From positions 81,056 to 145,055 of the forward strand of contig JBMNLH010000001.1 of NCBI GenBank assembly GCA_050952625.1: 64,000 nucleotides of DNA, read 5' to 3'. The notes under the pieces were generated by a model, which made no database searches, was not told the origin of the DNA, and saw only the letters and a list, made by a program, of their open reading frames with translations. Source of the DNA: Bacillota bacterium. Lineage in GTDB: Bacteria; Bacillota; Ch66; Ch109. The position numbers and the translations under genes are program-made. Below, piece by piece: positions 33,808-49,151 of this stretch. Position 1 is the stretch's first letter. Each line of letters starts with the position of its first letter.

Positions 33808-35280
33808 GTGAGAACAAAGACAAAACGGTCTTCAAGGCGAGGTATCCTATGGCGAGTCAGGATGGAGGTACAGGAAAGAAGATACCGAATCTGGCGGTGG
33901 ATTTTTCAGCAGCCAGACCACAGTACATCATATAAATGTTTAGCTGAACATTTTAAAGTCTCCGAGAAAACGGCGAAACTAGATTGTCTTGAACTGGTTA
34001 AAGAAGGCTATTTAAAACGTCATTGGGGCGGGGTAACCTTGACAGAAAAGGGACTTAAGGCCCTGTCCCAGGCAGGGTCGCTGGGACTTGATAGCACTAT
34101 AAAACGAAAACATCTACGCCAGTTAGTGATCTTACGGGTTTTAGCCAGGAGACGAGCTAGCCGAAAGAAAAGTGAACGCACCCTAACCCTAAAAGACATT
34201 TCGCGGTTAGCTGGGTGGGACATAGATTGCCCTGAAGAAAAAGCTTATCCCAGTTTAGATAGTTTGAGTAATGATCTGGCCGAGTTAACCTCAATTGGTC
34301 TGGTTGAACGAACCGAACAGGGCTGGCAGTTGGGCAGCAGTTTAATGCCGCCGCTTTATTTGAACGATGACCAAATGCTTCAGCTGCACCATTACTTAAA
34401 TACTTTGCCGGCGTTTCTGCCGCTGGATGCGGTCCAGATGACCAGAATTAAGGATAAATTGCAAACAATCTTGCTGACAAAAGAAAATATGCTCCCAATT
34501 GATCAACTTAAACTGGCGACTAGGGAAGTGGTCCATGGTTATTCTTCACCACCACCGGCTGATGCTAACATTGTCCGATTGGTCGAGGAAGCTGTCGCCA
34601 AAGGGTTGGTCCTGGAACTGCTCTATCAAGGCAGAAAGATCAAGATTAACCCAATCGGTTTAGTCTATCATTGGCGGCGGGGGTTCTGGTATATCATCTC
34701 CACCCCCAAAAAGCGGCAGCGAACCAACTTACAGATACTACGCCTGGATCGGGTGACTACCGCCTATAAAACTGAACAACAATTTACTCGTTTGCCGGCG
34801 CATAAAAGCAGGATATCGAACTTCCTGGCGGAATACTGGGGCGTTAGCAATGATCGAAGGTTCGAGGTGGAGATTCGTTTTTTTAATACCAAATGGAATG
34901 TTAACGCAGTCGAAAATATGTTGGGTGAAATTGCCCAACGGCAGTACTGGGCCAAAACCTGCCGGACCGTACCGCAGCCCGATGGCTCGGTTGTCTTAAA
35001 GGATACCATTACTGGGCTGTCTGAGTTTACAGCCTGGTTAAGAACCTACGGCGATGCAATCGAGATAATCTCCCCGGCTTGGCTGCGGGAAACACAAAAA
35101 GAAACCGCCCAAAAAATGCTAGCTGTCTATAAGAAGAAGACCGGCCAAATAAATAATCAGGCGGAAAAGCTATTTGACCAAGACATGATCAATAAAGCTG
35201 ATAGGCCTGAGCCAAGAGATACGACTGAGCAGAGGGGAGCCGAACAGAGAGACCGGAGCCGAGCAGAGAGATGGAGGTGA
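33808..35280 (+). CDS. WYL-domain transcriptional regulator (HTH-WYL-WCX), first of a tandem pair
   Basis: N-terminal DeoR-like HTH (YKCLAEHFKVSEKTAKLDCLELVKEGYL), a WYL core (GLVYHWRRGFWYIIS...LQILRLDRVTTA), and a C-terminal WCX-like extension. The true start may be the ATG at 33862. Confidence 0.7.
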   Translation: MRTKTKRSSRRGILWRVRMEVQERRYRIWRWIFQQPDHSTSYKCLAEHFKVSEKTAKLDCLELVKEGYLKRHWGGVTLTEKGLKALSQAGSLGLDSTIKRKHLRQLVILRVLARRRASRKKSERTLTLKDISRLAGWDIDCPEEKAYPSLDSLSNDLAELTSIGLVERTEQGWQLGSSLMPPLYLNDDQMLQLHHYLNTLPAFLPLDAVQMTRIKDKLQTILLTKENMLPIDQLKLATREVVHGYSSPPPADANIVRLVEEAVAKGLVLELLYQGRKIKINPIGLVYHWRRGFWYIISTPKKRQRTNLQILRLDRVTTAYKTEQQFTRLPAHKSRISNFLAEYWGVSNDRRFEVEIRFFNTKWNVNAVENMLGEIAQRQYWAKTCRTVPQPDGSVVLKDTITGLSEFTAWLRTYGDAIEIISPAWLRETQKETAQKMLAVYKKKTGQINNQAEKLFDQDMINKADRPEPRDTTEQRGAEQRDRSRAERWR

Positions 35281-35307
35281 GCCGAACGGCACCGAGCAGG
35301 AACGGAG

Positions 35308-36456
35308 TTGGCGAGACAGACAGATAAGGCACTAACCAGGTTGATTAGTTTGATCAAGATTCTCGAAAAACATCCAAAAGGCTTATCCGCTAATCAATTG
35401 GCCGACTTAACCGGATACCCGGCAGCGGTGATCCTGGATGACCTAAACTGGATCGTGCTGCAATCGGAATTTGCCGCGCACTACACTCTGTACGTTGATG
35501 ATTTCCCGGAAGAAGAATTAGACATAGAGACAGGAAGCGAAGCTTTACCTGAAGCCTTACATATTGAAACAGACAGTATCAAGGCAATCAATAACAGTGT
35601 AAAACATAGTGAGCTAATACAAGCTGAGACAGATAATAGCGACGAAGCAGATTATTCAGTGACTGACCCGGATCTTAAGTGGCTGCTTGTGCAAAGGCAG
35701 ACCTATACCCCCGGTTTAAATCTGTCTCTTGAGGAAGCGGTCCCTCTGTTATGGGCTTTAATGGAACACCCTCCAGGCCAAGAGCTGGCCTTATTCCAAA
35801 AAGAACTCAGGCGGCGAATTTTACCAGATCATATGGCTGAGCCAGCGGAAAACTGGATTCAGTTTATGGGAACCAAAGCGGGGATGGAAACACCCGACTG
35901 CCGTTACCTTGACCAATTGCGGGCGGCAATCTACCGGGAGCAGCTAATAGAGGTTAGATATTATGCTAAACAGTACCGGCAAACCAAACGGGCCCGCCTG
36001 CAACCGCTGGGGCTGGTGCTCTATAACGTAACCGGCACCTGGTACCTGGTCGCCCGAGAATACCCCGGGAAAGATATGACGGCCCGGGAAATAATCTTGC
36101 ATCTGGGGAGGCTTGAATCACTTCGGGTATTAGATCAAACGGCTAGCTACCCGGCTGATTTTTCGCTAACCGATTTTCTTAGAACTAGATGGGGAATGGA
36201 TATGTCAGATCCAGTCAAGGTCAAGGCCAGAATCTATCCGCAGGCCAATGTTCTGGAGAAGATCAACCGGGAAATGATAAAGCGCGGCCTGCCGGCCCCT
36301 GCGGAACAGGCTGACGGAACCTATCTATGGGAAGGCGAAGTGCGGGGAATTAATAATTTTACCCGGTGGATTCTTGGCTTTGGCTCAGCCGTTGAAATCT
36401 TAGCCCCGGCCAAGGTCCGGCGCGAAGTTATTTCGATAATCCGCAATATATGTTAA
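35308..36456 (+). CDS. WYL-domain transcriptional regulator (HTH-WYL-WCX), second of the pair
   Basis: HTH (GLSANQLADLTGYPAAVILDDLNWI), a WYL core (LQPLGLVLYNVTGTWYLVAREYPGKDMTAREIILHLGRLESLRVLD), and a WCX C-terminus (TRWILGFGSAVEILAPAKVRREV). Confidence 0.7.
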   Translation: MARQTDKALTRLISLIKILEKHPKGLSANQLADLTGYPAAVILDDLNWIVLQSEFAAHYTLYVDDFPEEELDIETGSEALPEALHIETDSIKAINNSVKHSELIQAETDNSDEADYSVTDPDLKWLLVQRQTYTPGLNLSLEEAVPLLWALMEHPPGQELALFQKELRRRILPDHMAEPAENWIQFMGTKAGMETPDCRYLDQLRAAIYREQLIEVRYYAKQYRQTKRARLQPLGLVLYNVTGTWYLVAREYPGKDMTAREIILHLGRLESLRVLDQTASYPADFSLTDFLRTRWGMDMSDPVKVKARIYPQANVLEKINREMIKRGLPAPAEQADGTYLWEGEVRGINNFTRWILGFGSAVEILAPAKVRREVISIIRNIC

Positions 36457-36645
36457 GTCAACCCCTACTTAATTGAAGTGGGGGTATTTAGTTTGAAAGG
36501 CAAACATCGCTTTGTCCTCCCCTTCACCGCCTCACGTCTCAAATCTGACATCTCACTCCTTACTCCTCACTTATCACTTCTTACACCTTATACATCACCC
36601 CTTGCCTCGCTCCTCGCACCTCATCCCTCACCCCGGTCGAATTTA

Positions 36646-36710
36646 GGAAACTTTTTTTCGGCTGAGTGAGTTTATAATCAGGTTTAAACTGCAAGCCTGA
36701 TTATATTAGG
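36646..36710 (+). promoter_or_regulatory. Conserved promoter-like element (…tttataat) overlapping a 9-bp perfect inverted repeat, a candidate operator
   Basis: ggaaactttttttcggctgagtgagtttataat has a second copy at 46280-46312. It is followed by ataatcagg-N13-cctgattat. Confidence 0.4.
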
Positions 36711-36739
36711 CTAGAGATTTTAGCGAGGTGAGGTTTTAA

Positions 36740-36922
36740 TTGGTGCGTAAAACTTGTCCTTATTGCGGCAAAGACTCTTTTAGTGCCTGCAGTACTGGCG
36801 AGTGGATCTGCCCGCATTGCTTTCGGGATATATCTAAGGTAGAACCCAAACCAATCAATTACCCGATCCTGCAGGTAGTTCAGAACAATCATTGCGACAA
36901 GGACCGCGAAGTAGTTGATTAA
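36740..36922 (+). CDS. Small CxxC…CxxC zinc-ribbon protein immediately upstream of cas10
   Basis: 60 aa, a GTG start after a GAGGTGAGG RBS, with CPYCGKD...CPHCF. Confidence 0.4.
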   Translation: MVRKTCPYCGKDSFSACSTGEWICPHCFRDISKVEPKPINYPILQVVQNNHCDKDREVVD

Positions 36923-37047
36923 AGCAGCGTAATTTGAAAAACAGAATTAACCATTAGTTAAAATAATTCGTTGATAGTTGGAAGGAAAATGGATGATCGT
37001 GTCGAAATTTCCATATAAATGCAGAACGGAGACGTTCAAATCCTAGT

Positions 37048-39462
37048 ATGTTAACCGTTAACCGTCAGGAGGTGAGAAAAATAGATTGGTTGTCTGACAA
37101 TAATGAAACTAATTTTAAAAACCTATTATACGGGGCCCTTTTTCATGATATCGGCAAGTTTTATCAGCGCACCCGTGATAAACAGGCGGAGAAGGAGATT
37201 TTCCAGGCTTATCAATGGTATGTAGAGAGCCTGGGTCGGGAATACCTCTCCCACGAACAATGGAGTGCCTACTTCATCCGCACTGTTTTAAAAATGGAAG
37301 CAGCCGCAACCCTGGCTTTAAAGCACCACCACCCGGAAACTGACCTGGAATACCTGATCGCAATTGCCGACAAGTTGTCCGCAATGGAACGGGATGAAGA
37401 AGGCCCGGCCAGTAACGGTAAAGCCAATGTGGCAGCGGAACCCCTGTGTTCTGTTTTATCTTCTATCCGGCACATTAGAGATGATAGCGAGCCGGCCATT
37501 AGTTTTAAACGCTTGAAATTCGAACCCTTGGTTGATCCTTACCCGGTTTCCGATAAAAATGCAGCCCTTAGCCCGGGGGACTATCAGGCCTGGTGGGAGT
37601 GTTTCGCAACGGAAACCAAGGAGACTGTGAAGCAGCCGGTCGGTGCTGGCAAACAGTTTCACCGTCTATATCAGTTGCTTTACCAGTACACCCAGACAGT
37701 GCCTTCAGCCGCCTATTATTCCAAACCAACTATCTCCTTGTTTGACCATTCCCGGACCACTGCAGCGATAGCCACGGCCCTTTACCGGCAGGGGCTTAGC
37801 CAGAATGACCTGGAAAGGTTGCACCGTCTTTTGGTGTATGGAGGCAAGAAGCGGGGAGCGGAAGAGCCGGTCCTGCTCTTGGTTGGCGGCGATATTTCGG
37901 GCATTCAGGACTTTGTGTTTGATGTGTCAGCCAAAGGAGCAGCCAAAGGCCTGCGGGGCCGGTCCTATTATCTGGCCACTCTTGGCGAGGCGATTGCTCA
38001 GTTTATCTTGACTCACGAGGGTCTTACCCCCTGTAACATTTTATATTCCGGGGGCGGCCATTTCTATTTGATTCTGCCGGTTCGGGCCATGTCACGCTTA
38101 GCCGATTACCAAAAACAGATCGACCAGATCCTGTTTGCGGCCCATCAAGGGAAGTTGTCGGTCATTCTAACCGGGATTCCCTTGACCCAGACTGATTTTT
38201 ACCCGGAGAATTTCGGCGAAAAGTGGCAGCAGATCGGTCTAGCAGCCCAAAAAGCCAAGCAGCAGAAATTCCTCGAATTGATCCGGCAAAACCCGGAACA
38301 AGTGCTGGGTCCGAGTTATGAAGGCCAGCAGGTTTGCGTCATTTGCGGCAGTTCAATGCCAGTGGGAGAAGAAAAATGCTCTTTCTGCGAAAGCTTTGAA
38401 CAGCTAGGCGATAACCTGGCGCGGGAGCGGACGTATCTTTTGGAGTACTACTTTAAGCCCCGTCCGGTAGACCAGATGTCCACAGTGGAAGATGTCTGGG
38501 CTGGTCTGGGATATCGGCTGGAGTTTTCCAACAAACCAGATGCCCAGGCCATTGTTTCGGTAATCAATCAACCAGCCTTGGCCGATAAAGCAGTTGATCG
38601 TGTGGTTTGGCTGGCGAATACTGCTCCGCATAACCCGGATGGCAGTCTGCTGACTTTTGAGGAGATCGCGGCGCAAAGTACCGGGGATCACATGTGGGGA
38701 GTCCTGCGCGGTGATGTGGATAATCTGGGCAGGGTTTTTCGGGAAGGCCTGGGCCAGGATCGCTCAATTTCCAAGATTGCCGCCCTCAGTCGAGAGATGT
38801 CCTTTTTCTTTAGCTTTATTTTTAATCAGGTCTGTCTGCGGTACCGGCAGTCGGTTTATGTCATTTATGCCGGGGGAGACGATTTCTTTTTGGTAGGTGC
38901 CTGGAGTGATTTGCCAACGATCGCGGCGGAAATCAACCGGGAATTTCACCGATACAGCTCCGGGAACCCTAACCTCACCCTATCTTGTGCGATCAGTATC
39001 GCATCGGGGATGACCTATCCTTTGTTTAAGGTGGCCCATACCGCCGGGGAACAACTGGACGAACAGGCCAAAACCACCCGAATGGTTAAAGGGGTTCTCC
39101 ATCATAAAGATAGTGTATGTTTTCTAGGCCAGCCCTTTACCTGGGGAGAATTGGAGGAAGTCAGACAAGTCAAGAACTTGATCAAAAAAGCAATCCAAAA
39201 TGAAGGGGTGGCTAAATCGCTCATCTTCTTGATTAATACAGCTTACGCTGAGCAGCGGCAATACCAGCAGGGCAGATACCCGATCAATCGAATTTGGCGG
39301 CTGGTCTACGCCCTGACCAGACTGGCTGCGCGACATGGGCAAGCCGCTAACACCCTGAAAGAATTGGAAAGCCGGCTGTTAACCAGCCAGACAATGCTGT
39401 ATGCCAACAGCCTTTACGCGGCCCGCTGGGCCGAAAAAGAATTGAGAACAAGGGGGGACTAA
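37048..39462 (+). CDS. cas10: Type III-A Cas10/Csm1 (HD nuclease plus cyclase/Palm domains)
   Basis: An N-terminal HD motif (LLYGALFHDIGKF) and a GGDD cyclase motif (VIYAGGDDFFLVGAW), at 804 aa, leading the csm2-5 operon. Confidence 0.9.
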   Translation: MLTVNRQEVRKIDWLSDNNETNFKNLLYGALFHDIGKFYQRTRDKQAEKEIFQAYQWYVESLGREYLSHEQWSAYFIRTVLKMEAAATLALKHHHPETDLEYLIAIADKLSAMERDEEGPASNGKANVAAEPLCSVLSSIRHIRDDSEPAISFKRLKFEPLVDPYPVSDKNAALSPGDYQAWWECFATETKETVKQPVGAGKQFHRLYQLLYQYTQTVPSAAYYSKPTISLFDHSRTTAAIATALYRQGLSQNDLERLHRLLVYGGKKRGAEEPVLLLVGGDISGIQDFVFDVSAKGAAKGLRGRSYYLATLGEAIAQFILTHEGLTPCNILYSGGGHFYLILPVRAMSRLADYQKQIDQILFAAHQGKLSVILTGIPLTQTDFYPENFGEKWQQIGLAAQKAKQQKFLELIRQNPEQVLGPSYEGQQVCVICGSSMPVGEEKCSFCESFEQLGDNLARERTYLLEYYFKPRPVDQMSTVEDVWAGLGYRLEFSNKPDAQAIVSVINQPALADKAVDRVVWLANTAPHNPDGSLLTFEEIAAQSTGDHMWGVLRGDVDNLGRVFREGLGQDRSISKIAALSREMSFFFSFIFNQVCLRYRQSVYVIYAGGDDFFLVGAWSDLPTIAAEINREFHRYSSGNPNLTLSCAISIASGMTYPLFKVAHTAGEQLDEQAKTTRMVKGVLHHKDSVCFLGQPFTWGELEEVRQVKNLIKKAIQNEGVAKSLIFLINTAYAEQRQYQQGRYPINRIWRLVYALTRLAARHGQAANTLKELESRLLTSQTMLYANSLYAARWAEKELRTRGD

Positions 39463-39463
39463 G

Positions 39464-39925
39464 GTGGGCATGAATCGACCACCCATTCCGGGGGGACCCG
39501 GGGGCAGACCAAGAAATACAAGCGGAGGTCGAAGTAACCTTGACAATTCCGCGGTCCGGGATGCCCTGCAAAACGTCAGGCAACTGCTGGATAAAGACCA
39601 GGACCCGTACGGAGAGTTATTAATCCAAACAGCCGAGGCAATGGGCCGGCACCTAGCCAATAACCGGATGACCACGGCCCAGATCCGGAAACTCTTCTCC
39701 GAAGTGCGGAAACTTAATTTTAAAGACGACGGGCCTTACAAGACCAATATGATGCGGGCCAAACTGGCCTATACTGCCGGCCGTCACCGCGAAGTTGGTG
39801 ACCTCCAGCAGGTATTAGACAAAGCCTTAATCGAAGTGGGGACCAGCGAAGAAAAATTTAACCGTTTTGAAAACTTTTTTGAAGCCATTGTGGCCTACCA
39901 TAAGAAATACGGCGGTAAAGATTAA
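39464..39925 (+). CDS. csm2: Csm2 small subunit
   Basis: A ~150 aa helical protein between cas10 and csm3, with a Gly/Pro-rich N-terminus followed by a helical core. Confidence 0.75.
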   Translation: MGMNRPPIPGGPGGRPRNTSGGRSNLDNSAVRDALQNVRQLLDKDQDPYGELLIQTAEAMGRHLANNRMTTAQIRKLFSEVRKLNFKDDGPYKTNMMRAKLAYTAGRHREVGDLQQVLDKALIEVGTSEEKFNRFENFFEAIVAYHKKYGGKD

Positions 39926-39970
39926 GAACGAAGAATTAGGGGTTAAGAAGACAGGGAGGAGGCTTAAGCG

Positions 39971-40804
39971 GTGACTGAACTAATAATGGAAGGCAAATTA
40001 GTCATGACTGGCCTGATTAAGGCCTGCACCGGACTGCATATCGGCGGGTCCCCGACTGGTTTAGATATTGGCGGCGTGGATAAGTCTGTCATTAAGGACC
40101 CAGGAGGTAAGCCCTATATCCCCGGCAGTTCGCTCAAGGGGAAAATGCGCAGTCTGCTGGAAAAAAGTGAAGGACTGGTTACTTCGTCCAGCCTGGTAGT
40201 TACTAAAAAAGGCGGGATCCACGACACCATTCGGATGCACATGTGCAATTCGCCAACTTGTGCTGTTTGCAATATTTTCGGCCGGACCAACGGGCGAAAA
40301 AAATTAGCTGACGAATCAGATCTAAATATTGAGAACGGGACCCTGCCGCGTTTGATAGTGCGGGATGCGTATCTGGTTGAGGACAGTATCCCGCGGGAGA
40401 TGAAAGAACACTTGGATTTGGAATGGACCGAGGTCAAGTTTGAAAACTCAATTGACCGTATTACATCTGCCGCTAACCCCCGACAGACTGAACGGGTGCC
40501 GCGGGGAGCAGAGTTTAGTTTTCAAATGGTCTATACGGTTTATACTCCGGCAGACCGAGATGACTTCAGCAAGGTGACCAAGGCCTTACGGCTGTTGGAG
40601 GATGACTACCTGGGCGGGGCCGGCAGCCGGGGTTACGGACAAATCCTTTTTCATAACCTGAAGCTATATTGGAATTCAGTCAATGACTATGAAACCGGGA
40701 ATATTAATCTAGCGACCAAAGAGCCCTGGCTAGCGGCGGATACCCTCAGCCAGTTGATGGAACAAATGGTTGAGGCCGGGGGCGTGGCCGGGCTTAAAGA
40801 ATAG
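39971..40804 (+). CDS. csm3: Csm3 (Cas7 backbone RAMP)
   Basis: GLHIGGS...KPYIPGSSLKGKMRSLLE G-loop motif plus the RAMP C-terminus GSRGYGQI. Confidence 0.9.
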   Translation: MTELIMEGKLVMTGLIKACTGLHIGGSPTGLDIGGVDKSVIKDPGGKPYIPGSSLKGKMRSLLEKSEGLVTSSSLVVTKKGGIHDTIRMHMCNSPTCAVCNIFGRTNGRKKLADESDLNIENGTLPRLIVRDAYLVEDSIPREMKEHLDLEWTEVKFENSIDRITSAANPRQTERVPRGAEFSFQMVYTVYTPADRDDFSKVTKALRLLEDDYLGGAGSRGYGQILFHNLKLYWNSVNDYETGNINLATKEPWLAADTLSQLMEQMVEAGGVAGLKE

Positions 40805-40816
40805 CGGGGCGATAGC

Positions 40817-41809
40817 ATGAAAGCACACATCGTGAAAATGCATTTTACAGCGCCCCTGCACTTAGGCAGCAAGGAAGCAATGCTGGAGAACACCCTGCAG
40901 CATATCCCATCCGATGTTGTTTTTTCCGCGCTGTGCAACGTGTATCGCCACCTCTACGGCAAACAAGCTTTAGAGTCGCTGCTGGCGGAACAAGCACAGT
41001 CGGCCGGCTTCCTATTGTCATCAGCCTTTCCTTATTACCGGGATGCCTATTTTTTGCCCCGGCCTTTAAACTTTGACTTAACCCGCTATGGCTTTGAACC
41101 GAAAAAGGCCAAACGGGTGAAATATCTGGAATATAACCTGATGCACCGGGTGTTGGCGGGTAAGTTTCAAGCCGCGGATTTGGAGAATTATGTCGCTGAG
41201 GCGGTGCAGGGCCTGCTTTTGCCCCGGGAGTATCAGGGTCTGAAAATCTGCCGCGAGGTTGAAATACCGCGGGTCGCCCTGGACAGCCTGACTGCTGCGT
41301 CAAATATCTATTACTTTAACCAGGTGACCTTTACCCGGGAGGCCGGTCTTTACTGTCTGGTCCGGTGTGCGCCGGAATTATGGGGCCGGCTCAGGACCTG
41401 TTTTCGTGTCTTGGGCGATGAAGGAATCGGCGGGGACCGGACTTCCGGCAAGGGAGGATTTACCGTCGAATTTCCAGGCGAACTGGCTTTTCCGCAACTG
41501 GGTCAGCCGGCCAGCCATGTCTTATTGTCCCTGTATTATCCCAGTTCTGATGAGGCGGGAAGCCTGGAGGCTGAGTATTCGTTAATCAAACGTTCTGGTT
41601 ATGTCTACTCTTCAGAGGAAACCGGCCTGAGAAGGAAAAGCGTCACCATGCTGGCCGAAGGGGCAGTAGTCTACGCTGATTCTCCTCCAGTTGGGAAGCT
41701 CGTGGACCTGACACCGCCCGGGTTTGACAAGCACAAAGTCTGGCGCAATGGCCTGGCCTTCACGGTGGCGTCAGCCCTGGGGAAAGGAGGAGGGGAAGAT
41801 GCCGGGTAA
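40817..41809 (+). CDS. csm4: Csm4 (Cas5-group RAMP)
   Basis: 330 aa between csm3 and csm5, with a C-terminal Gly-rich region (GDEGIGGDRTSGKGGF). Confidence 0.8.
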   Translation: MKAHIVKMHFTAPLHLGSKEAMLENTLQHIPSDVVFSALCNVYRHLYGKQALESLLAEQAQSAGFLLSSAFPYYRDAYFLPRPLNFDLTRYGFEPKKAKRVKYLEYNLMHRVLAGKFQAADLENYVAEAVQGLLLPREYQGLKICREVEIPRVALDSLTAASNIYYFNQVTFTREAGLYCLVRCAPELWGRLRTCFRVLGDEGIGGDRTSGKGGFTVEFPGELAFPQLGQPASHVLLSLYYPSSDEAGSLEAEYSLIKRSGYVYSSEETGLRRKSVTMLAEGAVVYADSPPVGKLVDLTPPGFDKHKVWRNGLAFTVASALGKGGGEDAG

Positions 41810-42950
41810 ACTCAAGTATCGCCTGGAGGTCTTGACCCCGGTGCATATTGGCAGCGGGCAAAAACTGCTGCCGGCGGATTATATTCTTGATCCCGAGACG
41901 CAGGAGGTTATTCGGGTCGACCTAAATGCCCTGTTTAGTGACCGCTCTTTTCCGGTCGGACGTTTTATCGCGGCGATTAAAGAGCCTGGCTTTAGTCTGC
42001 AGCGGAAATTTTATCAGTCAGGGCGCATGTATCCCCTGTACCGGCTGGCAGCAGCCGATACGCTAAACGAGCTTAACCAGCACATTGGCCGCCCGGCCGG
42101 GGCCATTCTCGAACACATAAAGGAGGCCGGCCAGCCCTATCTCCCGGGGAGTTCGCTGAAAGGAGCCTTGCGTAGTCTGGTCGTTCGCTGCTTGATTGCG
42201 CAAAACCCTGATTCTTACGAAGAAAGGCTCAGACAAAACATGCAAGGAGACAGGAGAAGCCGAAAGGAGTTTTTCTCCACTTCCGCTGAAGAACGCGTAG
42301 TCGGCAACCCCAATTTTAGTCTATTTAAGTCCCTGCAGGTTAGCGACAGCTCAACGTTAAACCCACAGCAGCTTCAATTGGGCTGTACGCGGGTCCTTTC
42401 CTTAACCCGACGTGGGTTCCGCTGGAAGGACCTGGGTCAGAACACGAACGTGGATCGTCCAGAGATGGCAACGCCGATTTTTTTTGAAGCCATTCCGGCT
42501 GGGACCACCCTAACCGGCACCTTAAAGGTAGATGAGACCTTGCTCAAAGGAGAAATGGCGCAATTGCTCAGGTACCCGCCGGCCAGCAGAACCGCCCTGC
42601 TGGAACTAACGCGGATCTGCCGGGAAGGCAGCCGGGAACTGTTGCGCAATGAAGAGGAGTTTTTCACGAAAATTTCCTTTGCCCCGGGTGTTCAGGCGGT
42701 CAAAGGTATACTGTCGATTGAGCAGGACTGCAACGCTAATCAGATGATTATCCCCTTGGCCTGGGGGACTGGTTATCTGGCCAAAGCGATGGGCTGGAAG
42801 ATTGATCCCGATTTGTTTCGGGAGGTGCGAGACCGATTCAGACTGGGCCGGCCGGGGTTTGAATTTCCAAAATCTCGAAAGATTATTTTCACGCAGGGTA
42901 AACCGTCTGGTTTAATGGGCTGGGTTAAGATCACCCTGGGAGAGGAATAA
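41799..42950 (+). CDS. csm5: Csm5 (Cas7-group RAMP)
   Basis: MPGKLKYRLEVLTPVHIGSG...PYLPGSSLKGALRSLV. The ATG at 41799 is preceded by GGAAAGGAGGAGG; the ORF-track start at 41724 lies inside csm4. Confidence 0.85.
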   Translation: MPGKLKYRLEVLTPVHIGSGQKLLPADYILDPETQEVIRVDLNALFSDRSFPVGRFIAAIKEPGFSLQRKFYQSGRMYPLYRLAAADTLNELNQHIGRPAGAILEHIKEAGQPYLPGSSLKGALRSLVVRCLIAQNPDSYEERLRQNMQGDRRSRKEFFSTSAEERVVGNPNFSLFKSLQVSDSSTLNPQQLQLGCTRVLSLTRRGFRWKDLGQNTNVDRPEMATPIFFEAIPAGTTLTGTLKVDETLLKGEMAQLLRYPPASRTALLELTRICREGSRELLRNEEEFFTKISFAPGVQAVKGILSIEQDCNANQMIIPLAWGTGYLAKAMGWKIDPDLFREVRDRFRLGRPGFEFPKSRKIIFTQGKPSGLMGWVKITLGEE

Positions 42951-42953
42951 CTG

Positions 42954-43882
42954 ATGCTCAAGGTAATTAAAGTTAATATCGAACTCAAACCCGTCGAACC
43001 TATTGAACTGCCAGTTTATAAAGGTTCCACCTTTCGGGGGGATTGGGCCAGGTACTTAAAGAGATGGTCTGTATCCGGCGGGACCGGCAGTGCCGTCGGT
43101 GTTCCATAAGTAATAAATGCAGCTATACCTTCGTCTTTGAAACCGCAACTTATTATGCCGGGCAGCCTCGGGATTCCGGGGGTGTGCCGCAGCCGTTTGT
43201 CTTGGAACCACCTCTGGAGGAAGAAACCAGATACGAAGTTGGCCAAACAATCAATTTCAGTTTAGTTTTGATGGGGCGGGGGGTAGATTATCTGCCCTAC
43301 TTCCTGTCCGCCTTTGATTTTATGGGGGAGCGGGGAATCGGACGCCGGCGGGGTCGGTTTGAGTTGTTCCGCGTGACTGACAGCTATTCGGGAGAGGTAG
43401 TCTACGACCGGGAAAGCGGTGAGGTTAACTCGCTGTTGACCCCCCGAAACCTTTCAGACCTGCTTCTGAAAAGCGAGGCGTGCCAAAGCTGTTGCCTGAC
43501 TCTGCTCACCCCGCTTCGTTTAAAACAAGGGGGCAGCCTGACCGAACAATTCAACTTTGAATTACTCATTCGAGCTATTCTAAGGAGAATAACCTATCTC
43601 AACCAGTATTTCGGTGATCAAGAGATAGAACTGGATTATAAACAGCTTATCGATCAGGCCAAAGAGATCAAAACCAGGGCCAGAAATATAGCCTGGCGGG
43701 ACTGGGAAAGGTATTCAAGCCGGCAGGATACCCGGATGAAACTGGGCGGAATAGTTGGCGACATAGAGTTCGCCGGAGAAATTACCCCTTTTTGGCCTTT
43801 TCTGTTAATGGGGCAGGAAATCCACATTGGCAAGAATACTACCTTTGGCCTGGGAAAATATTTAGTGGAACGATCAGGCTGA
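42954..43882 (+). CDS. cas6: Cas6 (crRNA endoribonuclease) of the III-A module, with a frameshift in a G6 run at 43035-43040
   Basis: Frame 0 from the ATG at 42954 gives MLKVIKVNIELKPVEPIELPVYKGSTFRG, then hits a stop. The track ORF (43043..43882) continues ...GQVLKEMVCIRRDRQCRRC... and carries the Cas6 G-rich loop GEITPFWPFLLMGQEIHIGKNTTFGLGKY. Inserting one G yields GSTFRGGLGQVL. Confidence 0.8.
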
Positions 43883-44343
43883 GAGATTGAGAATGTTGAG
43901 TAGATGTTGGAAGGATAAGTAATATTTATGTCGAATTCTAATATTATCTATTTTATTTTACCAGTTTCATATTCGATAGGTTTTGCCTATCGTAATTGAT
44001 AGATAAGTAAGTGAGCCTTTTGGCCTGATTTTATAACGTTGCCCTGCACGAACGAATAGTAATCAAAATTGCAAATTCGACTCCATATAATATAAGCAAT
44101 TTATATTTATTGAAGTAATGCACTTATTATTATCGCTAACCTGTTTAAGGCTAAAAATCTCTGGGAGGTTAGCGATAATGAGTAATTCAAAGAAATATGC
44201 TGAAATAAAGAGCAAGGAGGCAATAATTTTATTTGGGATGAACTGGAAAAGAGGTGATTTTCAAGTCTTTGTAGCAGGTTTTTTTGCGGTTAGCGGAATG
44301 GCACCTCGCAGCCCAGTATTATCAAGGCCTCCGGACAGCCGCT
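43883..44343 (+). promoter_or_regulatory. CRISPR array 1 leader (AT-rich), with a conserved 12-bp stem hairpin at 44131-44177 and 58 bp next to the first repeat shared with the array 2 leader
   Basis: tatcgctaacct...aggttagcgata, and gcggttagcggaatggcacctcgcagcccagtattatcaaggcctccggacagccgct, both have homologs at 60825-60867 and 60978-61035. Confidence 0.6.
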
Positions 44344-46179
44344 GTGAGAATGATTGACCCGCTCAGAGGGGATTGCGACGATGTACTTCTCGAAATTATC
44401 ATCGGCTCGCTTGTGCCAGTGGTGAGAATGATTGACCCGCTCAGAGGGGATTGCGACGGCATTAACCTCCTCCTCCTCCTCTTCTAATTCAGTTAATCTG
44501 TGAGAATGATTGACCCGCTCAGAGGGGATTGCGACCTGTCCCCGTAAATACGAGGACTTCTCTCAGATACCTGAGGTGAGAATGATTGACCCGCTCAGAG
44601 GGGATTGCGACAATTCCTCCTTGTTTTTTTTCGGTTGGTTTAGAGATTTCGTGAGAATGATTGACCCGCTCAGAGGGGATTGCGACTGTCACCTTTGTCA
44701 GCGTCCCCGCCATCATTGCCGGAGCCGCGTGAGAATGATTGACCCGCTCAGAGGGGATTGCGACACCAGATGCGGCCAGCATGGATCCACCGCTTGCTAA
44801 AACGTGAGAATGATTGACCCGCTCAGAGGGGATTGCGACTTTTCCTGTAATTCTGGCAATGATAAGATGTATCCAACTGTGAGAATCATTGACCCGATCA
44901 GAGGGGATTGCGACAAATAGCAATTAGAATTATTACCATGAAATTTCGGATCTGGGTGAGAATCATTGACCCGATCAGAGGGGATTGCGACTTACTAGAA
45001 TAAACACTTCTCCGCGCGATTTTTTTCCTGGTGAGAATCATTGACCCGATCAGAGGGGATTGCGACACTGGAGAGGAAGAAATAATGCTCATAATGGCAT
45101 TGACTTGTGAGAATCATTGACCCGATCAGAGGGGATTGCGACCCACTGCCGACCGGCAGCAAGCAGATTTTCATCCCCGTGAGAATCATTGACCCGATCA
45201 GAGGGGATTGCGACAAGGATTAAAGAATATAGCTCCTACAACTTTGTTGTGTGTGAGAATCATTGACCCGATCAGAGGGGATTGCGACGATATTTTTACG
45301 ATTAGTCCTATCCCCTGCAGCATCGGTGAGAATCATTGACCCGATCAGAGGGGATTGCGACGACTGCCCGCCGACCGCACTCGATGGCCGAAACCATTTT
45401 GTGAGAATCATTGACCCGATCAGAGGGGATTGCGACTTCTCCTTCTTTTTTGGTTTCGTTTCGTTTTCGACGGCTGGGTGAGAATCATTGACCCGATCAG
45501 AGGGGATTGCGACCAAAAGCAAGCTTACGACGGGATATGTTTTAGCTAGTGTGAGAATCATTGACCCGATCAGAGGGGATTGCGACAACTGAAGGTTTAC
45601 GTTTTTCTTGTTATCCCAGCTAATTGTGAGAATCATTGACCCGATCAGAGGGGATTGCGACCTATTGTTGCAGCACCACCACAACGCTCACAAATAAAAA
45701 GTGAGAATCATTGACCCGATCAGAGGGGATTGCGACCTAATGCCATAACTTCTCAACTCATCAATTGATTTCGGTGAGAATCATTGACCCGATCAGAGGG
45801 GATTGCGACATATTTTTCCTCCCATGGCTGGAACGGGTCAGAACGGTGTGAGAATCATTGACCCGATCAGAGGGGATTGCGACACACAAACTCTGGAACC
45901 CTCTCCCCGTCCTGCCTCTTTGCGTGAGAATCATTGACCCGATCAGAGGGGATTGCGACCTTGAAACTCATCGCACATCGCTCACTTTCTCTTATTTGTG
46001 AGAATCATTGACCCGATCAGAGGGGATTGCGACTTTTAGAGCAGGTCGCTTAGCAGGATTTTTCTCCTTTTTTGTGAGAATCATTGACCCGATCAGAGGG
46101 GATTGCGACACTCACTGTTCCCTTTTTATGCCCCATGATGATATCCCAAGGGGAGAATCATTGACCAGATTCGCCGAAT
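44344..46179 (+). CRISPR. CRISPR array 1: 25 repeats of 36 bp plus one degenerate terminal repeat; spacers 36-42 bp
   Basis: Repeats 1-7 read gtgagaatgattgacccgctcagaggggattgcgac; repeats 8-25 read gtgagaatcattgacccgatcagaggggattgcgac; a degenerate copy lies at 46150. First repeat starts include 44344, 44422, 44500, 44576 and 44651. The leader is at the cas6 side, so the array is transcribed on the + strand. Confidence 0.95.
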
Positions 46180-46279
46180 TATTTACTTTACCCAAAACAA
46201 CTAGGTGGGTTAGATGGCAAGCTAATTCAGGTTAATGGCAGCCTCAGTTATTGGGGCTTTTTTTATTGCCCCCTATCTG

Positions 46280-46312
46280 GAAACTTTTTTTCGGCTAGTT
46301 GAATTTATAATT
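46280..46312 (+). promoter_or_regulatory. Second copy of the conserved promoter-like element upstream of the HNH-motif gene
   Basis: ggaaactttttttcggctagttgaatttataat matches 36646-36679 at about 30 of 34 positions and ends in TATAAT. Confidence 0.4.
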
Positions 46313-46368
46313 TATTAGGGTGATCGGTTAACTTGTCATTGCAACTTCTATCAAGGAGGTTAAAAGAA

Positions 46369-47229
46369 ATGGGTTTTCTAAAGGATTTAGGCAGTCTCAC
46401 CGGCAGCATTGCAGGGGTGGTTTTGTCTACTCCAGTGACTTTGGCTGGTGGTTTTTTTGATAGTGATACCTTAAAGGAGGCGGCTCGCGGGATACACTAT
46501 GTTACCGCCAGTACTGGTTCCTTAATCGGTCAAACCGTCAGTGGCGGTCTGGATGTGGTGGAAGGAGTTTTAACTAGGAATGACAGGATAAGTCAGCAGG
46601 GTCTTGATGAGGTTGGTGATTCTTTTAAAACTGTTATCAATGGGGTAATTGGTGGTACCGCTAGTCTCTTGGATAATAGTGGTAAAGTAATTACTGGGGT
46701 ATTTGAGGGTGATACGGCCACCGCAATGCAAGGAGCTAAAAATCTTGCTAAATTTGGCATAATTACGGCCATCGGAATTGGGCTGGCTGATGCGATTGGG
46801 ATTGTTGATGTAAATGGGAATGAGACGGTAGCCCACGCTCAAGTACCTAGTAGTTTTAGTTATGATCAAGATGATGCTGTTTTGGATTATTCAGATATTG
46901 GTGAACCGCATGGGCTAGTACCGGACGTTCCGGTTGATGACATTCCTGGAGTTGATAATGGTATGGCTCATCCATCCGCTACGGAGGTATTAATTGATCT
47001 GGGTTGCCAGGATGGAACGGAGCATGTCGTGGATCCGCCCCGGGATCCGGGGATGGTCCAGGCATTTTTAACGGAGCATGGATATACTGAGACTCCTGAT
47101 GGTTACGAGGTCCATCACATTATTCCTCTGTCCGAAGGTGGAGCCGACCATCCGGCTAACATGGTATTAGTTTTGGAAGAAGAACATGATCAGATTACGG
47201 CGGCCCACCAGAGGTTTTATCAATGGTAA
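46369..47229 (+). CDS. Hypothetical protein with a Gly-zipper-rich N-terminal region and a C-terminal HNH-type nuclease motif
   Basis: The ATG at 46369 follows an AAGGAGG RBS. The C-terminus EVHHIIPLSEGGADHPANMVLVLEEEHDQITAAH fits the HNH HH-N-H pattern. The N-terminus has GxxxG-like runs (ITAIGIGLADAIGI). Confidence 0.5.
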   Translation: MGFLKDLGSLTGSIAGVVLSTPVTLAGGFFDSDTLKEAARGIHYVTASTGSLIGQTVSGGLDVVEGVLTRNDRISQQGLDEVGDSFKTVINGVIGGTASLLDNSGKVITGVFEGDTATAMQGAKNLAKFGIITAIGIGLADAIGIVDVNGNETVAHAQVPSSFSYDQDDAVLDYSDIGEPHGLVPDVPVDDIPGVDNGMAHPSATEVLIDLGCQDGTEHVVDPPRDPGMVQAFLTEHGYTETPDGYEVHHIIPLSEGGADHPANMVLVLEEEHDQITAAHQRFYQW

Positions 47230-47438
47230 TTAAGGTTTAACTTGAGATGGTTTCTAGTTATATTTAAAGCATACTAGTTAAGTCGGTTTAAAAAGTTAAC
47301 CATTGATATTCTTTAAAAATTAGAAGGGAAATGGATGAATATGTCGAATTTCCAGTATACAGTATTGATATGGTCGAATAACTAGTAGGTATTGCGAAAC
47401 AACTTAATTATTGGGATTTAGCGTAGAACGGAGGCCTA

Positions 47439-49151
47439 ATGATAATGGAGAAAAAACCGTGGAAGCTAATTACCTTTATCGGGATGGGTTATTATCAGCC
47501 GACGAATTATAAGATTAAAGGAGTAGAATATCCTGACACCAAATATTTTCCCTTAGCTGCGGCTAAATGGTTGATTGAGCAAAGGGGAGATCAAGGAAAA
47601 ATTGTAGTACTGGTCACTAAAGAAGTTATTGAAGATACAAAAAACCAGAATTTACAGGGATTTAAGGAAGCCTTATTACTTGACCCACAATTTAAACATC
47701 TAAATGTGCAGCAAGAAATATTTCCTTGGAAAGAAGAAAGCGAGCTCTGGGAAATATTTAAGATAATCGTTAATTCGGTAGAGAATGGCGAAACCGTATA
47801 TTTTGATATTACTCATTCCTTTAGATTTATCCCGTCCATCGTTTTGTTGGCTTTGATTTATTTAAAAGAGGTTAAAAGGATAGACCTTCAGTCGGTGTTC
47901 TACGGAAACTTTGAGGCAACGAAATCAGGCTTTGACTATGCACCCGTATTTGATATTCTCCCTTTTGTCGATCTCGCGGAATGGCTGTTTGGGGCGCGAG
48001 TATTTAAAGAATTTGGGTTAGGCAGTATTTTAGGTGACAAAATTAAGACGGTGCAGGCTGAAATACGGAGAAAAAGCAAAGAAGGGCCGGAGAAGTTAAT
48101 TAAGCTGGGGACCCGCTTGAATAATCTTTCAAGTGCTTTAGCTGTGGGTAATGCCATAGGTGTGGGTGAAAACGCCCTGAAATTGACTAATTTTATAAAT
48201 CAAAATAAAGATAAAATAGAAACGGAAGTAAGGGAGTATGTCCCGCCATTGGTGCCGTTAATAGAGGGTATTGTGGATGAATATGCTCAATTTGGGCTTG
48301 AGGATATTCAGTTAAATATGAAGGAATTAGAGAGAGAAGAAAGTTTAATTCGCTGGTATCTAGAAAAAAAAGATATCGGAAAAGCCCTGCAACTGTTTAG
48401 GGAATTTATAGTAAATACTGTTTTATATATTAATGCTGGGTCGACTCGTGAGTGGCTAAAACTGGATAATAGATTGCCCGTAGAACGGCAATTACATAAT
48501 TTAAAGGTCGCTAATACAGAGGTTGGTCGCCTCTGGGATGAAATTGCATTCGAAAGAAATTCAATTGCCCATTGTGGTTTTAATAATCAAGACAAATTTA
48601 ATCCGAATAAAGAGTATCGAAATTTACAGTTGGTTACCAGGCCTGACCATAATCTTGAGGAATGGATTTCTAGAATTGCTTCAGAGGTACAAGCTTTAGC
48701 CTTCGATGAAGGATCGGTCCTGCTAACACCATTGGGGCTGTCGAAAGGGTTATTATTTACCTTATGGCAGAGATATCCTGATATTGAGCGGACCATAATT
48801 CTCACATCGGCAGAGACGGTCAACAGTATCGAAGAAGTGAAAAAGATAACCGGATACTCAGGGGAGATCAAGATCTGCCTAGTTCAAGATCCATTTACTG
48901 CTTTTGACCAGATTGAAAATAAGTGGAAGGAAATAAAAGATTTTCTTAAAAGTAATATTATTGTTAATATCACTGGCGGTACCACAGCACTTCAATATTT
49001 GGTGGAAAAAATACAACAAAGGCTTATTAACCAGGATGTGAGAATAACTACGGTTGCGGCTATTGATCGAAGGCCCGTGCAGGAACAAAAAGAAAACCCA
49101 TGGGTAGCCGGACAGATAATTAAATTAAAGGAAGACCATCAGGAAGATTAG
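47439..49151 (+). CDS. csx1: Csx1-family CARF-HEPN ribonuclease with an additional C-terminal Rossmann/CARF-like domain
   Basis: N-terminal CARF with the DxTH motif (VYFDITHSFRFIPS), a HEPN Rx4H motif (FERNSIAHCGF), and then ~190 more aa with VLLTPLGLSKGLLFT...TIILTSAE...VNITGGTTALQYL, which looks like a second CARF-type fold. Confidence 0.75.
   Translation: MIMEKKPWKLITFIGMGYYQPTNYKIKGVEYPDTKYFPLAAAKWLIEQRGDQGKIVVLVTKEVIEDTKNQNLQGFKEALLLDPQFKHLNVQQEIFPWKEESELWEIFKIIVNSVENGETVYFDITHSFRFIPSIVLLALIYLKEVKRIDLQSVFYGNFEATKSGFDYAPVFDILPFVDLAEWLFGARVFKEFGLGSILGDKIKTVQAEIRRKSKEGPEKLIKLGTRLNNLSSALAVGNAIGVGENALKLTNFINQNKDKIETEVREYVPPLVPLIEGIVDEYAQFGLEDIQLNMKELEREESLIRWYLEKKDIGKALQLFREFIVNTVLYINAGSTREWLKLDNRLPVERQLHNLKVANTEVGRLWDEIAFERNSIAHCGFNNQDKFNPNKEYRNLQLVTRPDHNLEEWISRIASEVQALAFDEGSVLLTPLGLSKGLLFTLWQRYPDIERTIILTSAETVNSIEEVKKITGYSGEIKICLVQDPFTAFDQIENKWKEIKDFLKSNIIVNITGGTTALQYLVEKIQQRLINQDVRITTVAAIDRRPVQEQKENPWVAGQIIKLKEDHQED

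Follow-up and report, generated by a model that had tools for sequence, protein, structure and literature searches.

The window analyzed here, a stretch of 64,000 nucleotides from a Bacillota bacterium, holds a gene for an HNH protein. As originally predicted, the gene follows the trailer end of CRISPR array 1 (44344–46110; 24 repeats, with a further degenerate one near 46151) and precedes two csx1-like genes of the TM1812/DxTHG type, csx1a and csx1b. The III-A array lies on one side of the gene, and the two csx1 genes and a III-B operon lie on the other; its neighbours in the window are CRISPR components only (csm, cmr and csx1). An HD motif is kept in the window Csm1 (FHDIGKF) and in the Cas10 of a homologous locus, L043 (CHDLGKF), and the window Cmr2 is without one, as is common for Cmr2. 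The idea that the HNH protein replaces a missing HD nuclease was rejected because Csm1 and the L043 Cas10 retain this motif. In the type III loci that contain the HNH gene, the GGDD cyclase motifs of Cas10 are intact.

The open reading frame (46369–47229, forward strand) is a genuine gene encoding a protein of 286 residues, with a pI of 4.2 and 11 K+R versus 42 D+E. A Shine-Dalgarno sequence, AGGAGG (46355–46360, forward strand), read directly from the DNA, stands 8 nt 5′ of the ATG. Since homologues also start with MGFLK, the ATG at 46369 is favoured over an upstream TTG at 46333. The exact protein is present in public collections (P0001) as 'HNH endonuclease signature motif containing protein [Bacillota bacterium]'. 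The gene has a low GC3 (0.376), like that of csx1a/b (0.37–0.385), versus 0.52–0.57 in the csm and cmr genes; this common composition suggests co-acquisition of the HNH gene with csx1a/b.

The intergenic region carries recognizable signals. A terminator-like hairpin with a T-run (46240–46268, forward strand), formed by an 8-pair stem at 46240–46258 followed by TTTTTTTATTG, separates the trailer end of array 1 from the HNH gene. Downstream of it, a promoter- or operator-like element of 33 nt (46279–46311, forward strand) ends in TATAAT (46306–46311), 58 nt 5′ of the open reading frame. A second copy (36646–36678, forward strand) lies 65 nt 5′ of a 59-residue CxxC...CxxC (Zn-ribbon) ORF (36743–36922), which precedes cas10/csm1 as the first gene of the csm operon. 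The copies are identical at 29 of 33 positions, with similarity confined to the element, and they are the only 2 in the 64-kb window, where 0 are expected by chance. Both the hairpin and the element are kept upstream of the orthologue in locus L098, which is 88% identical to the window protein and conserved end to end. The element had been predicted to be 34 bp long, promoter-like, and shared with the Zn-ribbon ORF before cas10: the sharing holds, the length is 33 nt, and the perfect TATAAT is offset by the lack of a canonical −35, the sigma-70 scan making no call there. The sequence similarity suggests a putative regulatory element that may co-regulate the HNH gene and the csm leader gene. 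Rfam yielded zero matches across 36300–47600. Two HTH-WYL-WCX regulators are also encoded in the window, at 33808–36456.

The protein consists of a helical N-module, a hydrophobic helix, an acidic linker, and a C-terminal HNH module. The N-module (residues 1–128; 46369–46752, forward strand) is Gly/Ala-rich and all-helical, as delineated by AF2 helices and by homologues with other C-termini. The N-terminal 150 residues are predicted to be helical, and the N-terminal region contains 16% G and 42% G/A/S/T, with conserved glycines at G12, G16, G27, G54 and G59. AF2 pLDDT remains below 55 despite 59 homologues, and the fold of the module is not confident. The original prediction described this region as dominated by GxxxG-like repeats; it is indeed Gly-rich, but GxxxG occurs 5 times versus 4.0 in shuffled sequences (p 0.38), and the 'glycine zipper' was rejected as a statistical feature.

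The same type of N-module is common to more than 55 Bacillales-type proteins with other C-termini. The C-terminal domains joined to it include HNH, WHH/Colicin-DNase, Peptidase_C39_2, and an unknown HHVxPH...DGDG end; in Bacillus sp. JJ1609, the very same N-module carries a WHH/Colicin-DNase. Retrieving these relatives required a profile of 41 N-modules, as a word-indexed search with the N-module alone gave 1 match. Against PDB sequences, the profile matched designed helical repeats only (E > 0.04), and no Pfam trafficking domain, LXG included, matched the window protein. Most family members come from diderm gut bacteria, and their N-region differs. An hhalign comparison of Bacilli-type and gut-type N-regions (65% probability, E 6e-5) is suggestive of homology between them but does not prove it.

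Residues 129–148 (FGIITAIGIGLADAIGIVDV; 46753–46812, forward strand) form a moderately hydrophobic helix with a Kyte-Doolittle 19-mer maximum of 1.86. Across the family, the linker follows an equivalent helix, located a median of 16 residues before the HNH module, and Kyte-Doolittle values of at least 1.6 are reached in 46% of the family versus 10.5% of neighbouring proteins. On the Hessa scale, the helix sums to about +5 kcal/mol and is not predicted to be transmembrane, and no family member falls at or below 1.5. The expectation of a membrane-prone N-terminus is thus borderline by one scale and not supported by the other, and a firm transmembrane call was rejected because the two disagree. 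The acidic linker that follows (residues 149–181; 46813–46911, forward strand) has 0 K+R and 6 D+E in residues 161–181, and the mean linker charge across the family is −4.3.

The C-terminal 105 residues (182–286; 46912–47226, forward strand) make up an HNH (beta-beta-alpha-metal) module. The predicted motif, EVHHIIPLSEGGADHPANMVLVLEEEHDQITAAH, is present in the window protein, and Pfam HNH (PF01844) matches residues 245–268 with 22.9 bits versus a cutoff of 21.4. AF2 places strands at 246–250 and 265–269 and a helix at 270–284, with pLDDT above 90 in the HNH fold. The catalytic residue is His250 (codon 47116–47118), and the module also contains N264, H273, and the invariant H219, D260 and W286. 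Residues H250, N264 and H273 are kept in at least 90% of 48 homologues. Nuclease activity is predicted from the modelled fold and the intact catalytic residues. The module contains 2 K+R versus 20 D+E; such acidity is unusual for a DNase and counts against a DNase role.

The closest known counterpart of this module is found in Cas8-HNH, a subunit of the type I-F HNH Cascade (variant I-F4; Selenomonas sp. RGIG9219; PDB 8w1p, 8ydb, 8z0l and 9shx), where it is a Mg/Mn-dependent DNase (PMC11480323). The shared 105-residue module extends from the 'LxPDxxIDxLxGVxNG' strand to the C-terminal W with about 40% identity, and the catalytic His305 and H275 of Cas8-HNH correspond to H250 and the invariant H219 of the window protein. 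The claim that the protein has no recognizable Cas domain therefore needs amending with respect to this module, although it stands for CARF and SAVED: no match to these or to any other nucleotide-sensor domain was found in Pfam, NCBIfam or PADLOC. In contrast to Cas8-HNH, the window protein lacks a Cas8f fusion (no Csy1 match), and cas5f, cas7f and cas6f, which adjoin the Cas8-HNH gene, are absent beside it. Of the residues lining the DNA groove of Cas8-HNH (Y271, R274, H275 and R277), only H275 persists; E218 stands in place of R274 and V221 in place of R277, a basic insertion is absent, and K+R number 2 versus 13 in the Cas8 domain. An acidic module without equivalents of Y271, R274 and R277 could have a substrate other than long DNA.

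The protein had been considered an orphan; however, 359 representatives match it at E ≤ 1e-3. Stand-alone members are about 250 residues long and combine a variable helical N-module, an acidic linker, and the conserved 105-residue HNH module, and no family in Pfam, NCBIfam or PADLOC is specific to them. True Csy1 fusions matching Cas_Csy1 also occur (P0121, P0157, P0172, P0183, P0199 and P0214), and the Selenomonas sp. RGIG9219 Cas8-HNH locus itself was retrieved by the locus scan (L040), showing the true Cascade arrangement. Among the top matches, about 85 representatives are stand-alone and at least 6 are Csy1 fusions. The much greater diversity of the stand-alone form, judged without a rooted tree, makes it the likelier donor of the Cas8-HNH module.

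Recurrence of the gene beside type III loci in other genomes was borne out. Cas genes or arrays accompany 26 of 48 family loci of at least 8 kb and 0 of 51 control HNH loci (p 5e-11), and 9 of 20 versus 0 of 47 after dereplication at 70% identity (p 4e-6). An array call needed at least 4 repeats; a 'CRISPR' call of three repeats within a long ORF of L030 was discarded as false. HNH-module homologues recur in III-A and III-D loci and beside CARF genes in four unrelated lineages (the Bacillota MAG, Sutterellaceae, Succinivibrionaceae and Selenomonadaceae), an apparent type specificity that is biased by cas detection seeds drawn from type III loci. In Sutterella, the HNH gene follows csm genes, cas6, cas1/2, Csx16, Card1, NE0113 and 6BHPP; in Duodenibacillus, it is divergent from cas10, 172 bp apart; in Succinivibrionaceae, it accompanies Csm6; and in III-D loci of Selenomonadaceae, it is next to cas1. 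Neither the lack of an HNH fold nor a restriction of homologues to non-CRISPR contexts was found. An unrelated insertion, one of three readings offered by the original prediction, was rejected because of the recurrent type III linkage, the shared element, and the csx1-like composition; the best supported of the three is a CARF-independent type III accessory nuclease, which agrees with the HNH fold, the absence of CARF and SAVED, and this linkage.

We therefore consider that the gene most likely encodes a CARF-less DNase ancillary to the type III CRISPR-Cas locus, with a probability of roughly 45%; its unnamed family is probably a hitherto undescribed group of CRISPR accessory nucleases and not a stray insertion. 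Nuclease effectors such as the cOA-activated Csm6/Csx1, Can1/Can2-Card1 and NucC likewise recur in type III loci with Cas10, but the window protein lacks the CARF, SAVED or NucC-type sensor of these ancillary nucleases. Current type III surveys list HEPN, PIN, RelE, PD-(D/E)xK, HD, protease, NADase, deaminase and membrane effectors, and HNH is missing among the effector classes of the 2025 classification (PMC12669027) and of a ring-nuclease and effector census (PMC12409355). Csx26, given as 'HNH nuclease' type III accessory cluster 37 by Shah et al. 2018 (PMC6546367), is by that description also a non-CARF HNH accessory gene of type III cassettes, defined on the Sulfolobus gene SacN8_09300; the comparison with the window family is by description. 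Membrane-associated accessory proteins of type III systems, namely CorA, Cam1 and Csx23, are an established theme (Shmakov et al. preprint, 10.1101/270033), and share with the window protein a non-canonical accessory nature and a hydrophobic helix before a soluble domain. Unlike the window protein, with its borderline helix and no sensor found, they have clear transmembrane helices and a nucleotide-sensing domain.

With no detectable sensor domain, there is no visible route from Cas10 signalling to the HNH protein, and the proposed mechanism relies on restraint and recruitment. The acidic nuclease module alone would bind DNA poorly, which could allow the protein to be made without an immunity protein. 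DNA would be cut only once the N-terminal module concentrates or docks the nuclease. Candidate activation routes are self-assembly, peripheral membrane binding, and a partner, which might be the effector complex or a CARF protein such as Csx1 or NE0113. Docking of this kind would parallel the positioning of the same HNH module by Cascade in type I-F.

The gene could also encode a generic defence-island nuclease that works with an adjacent NTPase or sensor, its type III adjacency reflecting defence-gene clustering rather than CRISPR function. Candidate partners would be the dynamin-like pairs, the McrBC-like pairs, DUF1848, and a partner of 572–679 residues with no Pfam match. In about half of the family loci, no cas gene lies within 10 kb, and other defence modules also adjoin family genes: in five loci, DUF1848 and the start of the HNH gene overlap by 4 nt; dynamin-like GTPases are encoded 2–25 nt 5′ of the HNH gene in L009 and L023 and directly beside it in L021 and L113; L012, L014 and L049 hold McrBC-like pairs; and DarT is near the HNH gene in L016. 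This fraction, together with the tight non-cas coupling, means that the link may be to defence islands generally. However, the neighbours met most often across all loci are Cas1, NE0113 and CRISPR arrays, the window gene has only CRISPR neighbours and a 33-nt element in common with the csm operon, and L098 retains CARF neighbours downstream, though of different families (APE2256 and Cas02710). On balance, we regard this explanation as rather unlikely.

Slightly less plausible still is a protein of the polymorphic-toxin type, in which the N-module would export or display the HNH domain to act outside the cytoplasm on foreign or neighbour DNA, and the CRISPR location would reflect hitch-hiking in a conflict island. 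The N-module would either resemble a signal anchor or serve as the substrate for secretion by a Gram-positive route. Polymorphic toxins (WHH and Colicin-DNase; LXG-type in Bacillota) also join a helical N-domain to a swappable C-terminal toxin domain, and the N-module recurs in Bacillales proteins whose C-termini are WHH/Colicin-DNase or Peptidase_C39_2. Some N-module proteins carry a DxDxDG-type motif, typical of extracellular Ca-binding regions. The charge flanking the helix (+0.7 upstream versus −2.9 downstream) is positive-inside for an exported C-terminus in 83% of members. Downstream of the gene, orphan fragments of the C-domain occur in L006, L007 and L018, and five small uncharacterized ORFs, reminiscent of immunity/orphan cassettes, occur in the Bacillus locus L096. 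Against this stand a hydrophobic helix that is not membrane-like on the Hessa scale and the gut-type N-region of most members. No plausible immunity-type ORF of at least 20 residues occupies 47230–47438, 3′ of the window gene, and no immunity-size ORF follows the gene in L098, L006, L012 or L043. Secretion-system genes were not seen near the gene in the inspected loci, few of which are from Bacillales. Moreover, the HNH module belongs to a family whose strong CRISPR linkage is unexpected for interbacterial toxins. The earlier suggestion of a polymorphic-toxin remnant is supported in part, for the N-module, whose origin in such toxins is plausible; the window offers no immunity ORF, and the full-length protein with its intact catalytic residues is not a remnant.

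An adaptation-stage nuclease, for example one trimming or generating prespacers for Cas1-Cas2, appears improbable. Cas1 is the most frequent annotated neighbour (10 of 44 loci), the HNH gene lies 7–33 bp from cas1 in L021, L113 and L012, and an array is often within 1–3 kb; yet no cas1 or cas2 homologue was found in the 64-kb window with the seeds used, and many loci pair the HNH gene with CARF genes only. Least probable of all, the gene could be an inert remnant or encode a selfish, free-standing homing endonuclease of the HNH type: matches in PADLOC and PHROGs were confined to the generic HNH motif, phage homing-endonuclease PHROGs among them, and the contigs of two homologues are crowded with small unannotated ORFs, but the family is essentially absent from viruses (one marginal match in 2.9 million viral contigs), the extremely acidic protein has no DNA-binding module, its full-length ORF retains the conserved catalytic residues and comes with expression signals of its own, and the L098 orthologue is conserved throughout.

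Returning to the ancillary type III nuclease, a broader proposal remains tentative: the family may constitute a new class of type III ancillary effector, a CARF/SAVED-less HNH DNase restrained by acidity and switched by its N-module, and may also be the source of the HNH module that replaces Cas3 in type I-F4. If true, type III systems would gain a further class of effector, a recurrent HNH partner without a sensor, whose activation would proceed by some route other than the direct binding of cOA. The stand-alone form, abundant inside CRISPR loci of Selenomonadaceae (the bacterial family of Cas8-HNH itself), is a concrete candidate for the origin of the HNH module in the Cas8-HNH Cascade, a complex relevant to genome editing, and offers many natural sequence variants of that module. 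The unstudied gene pairs flagged by its neighbourhoods (DUF1848-HNH, dynamin-HNH and NE0113-6BHPP-HNH) are testable defence modules.

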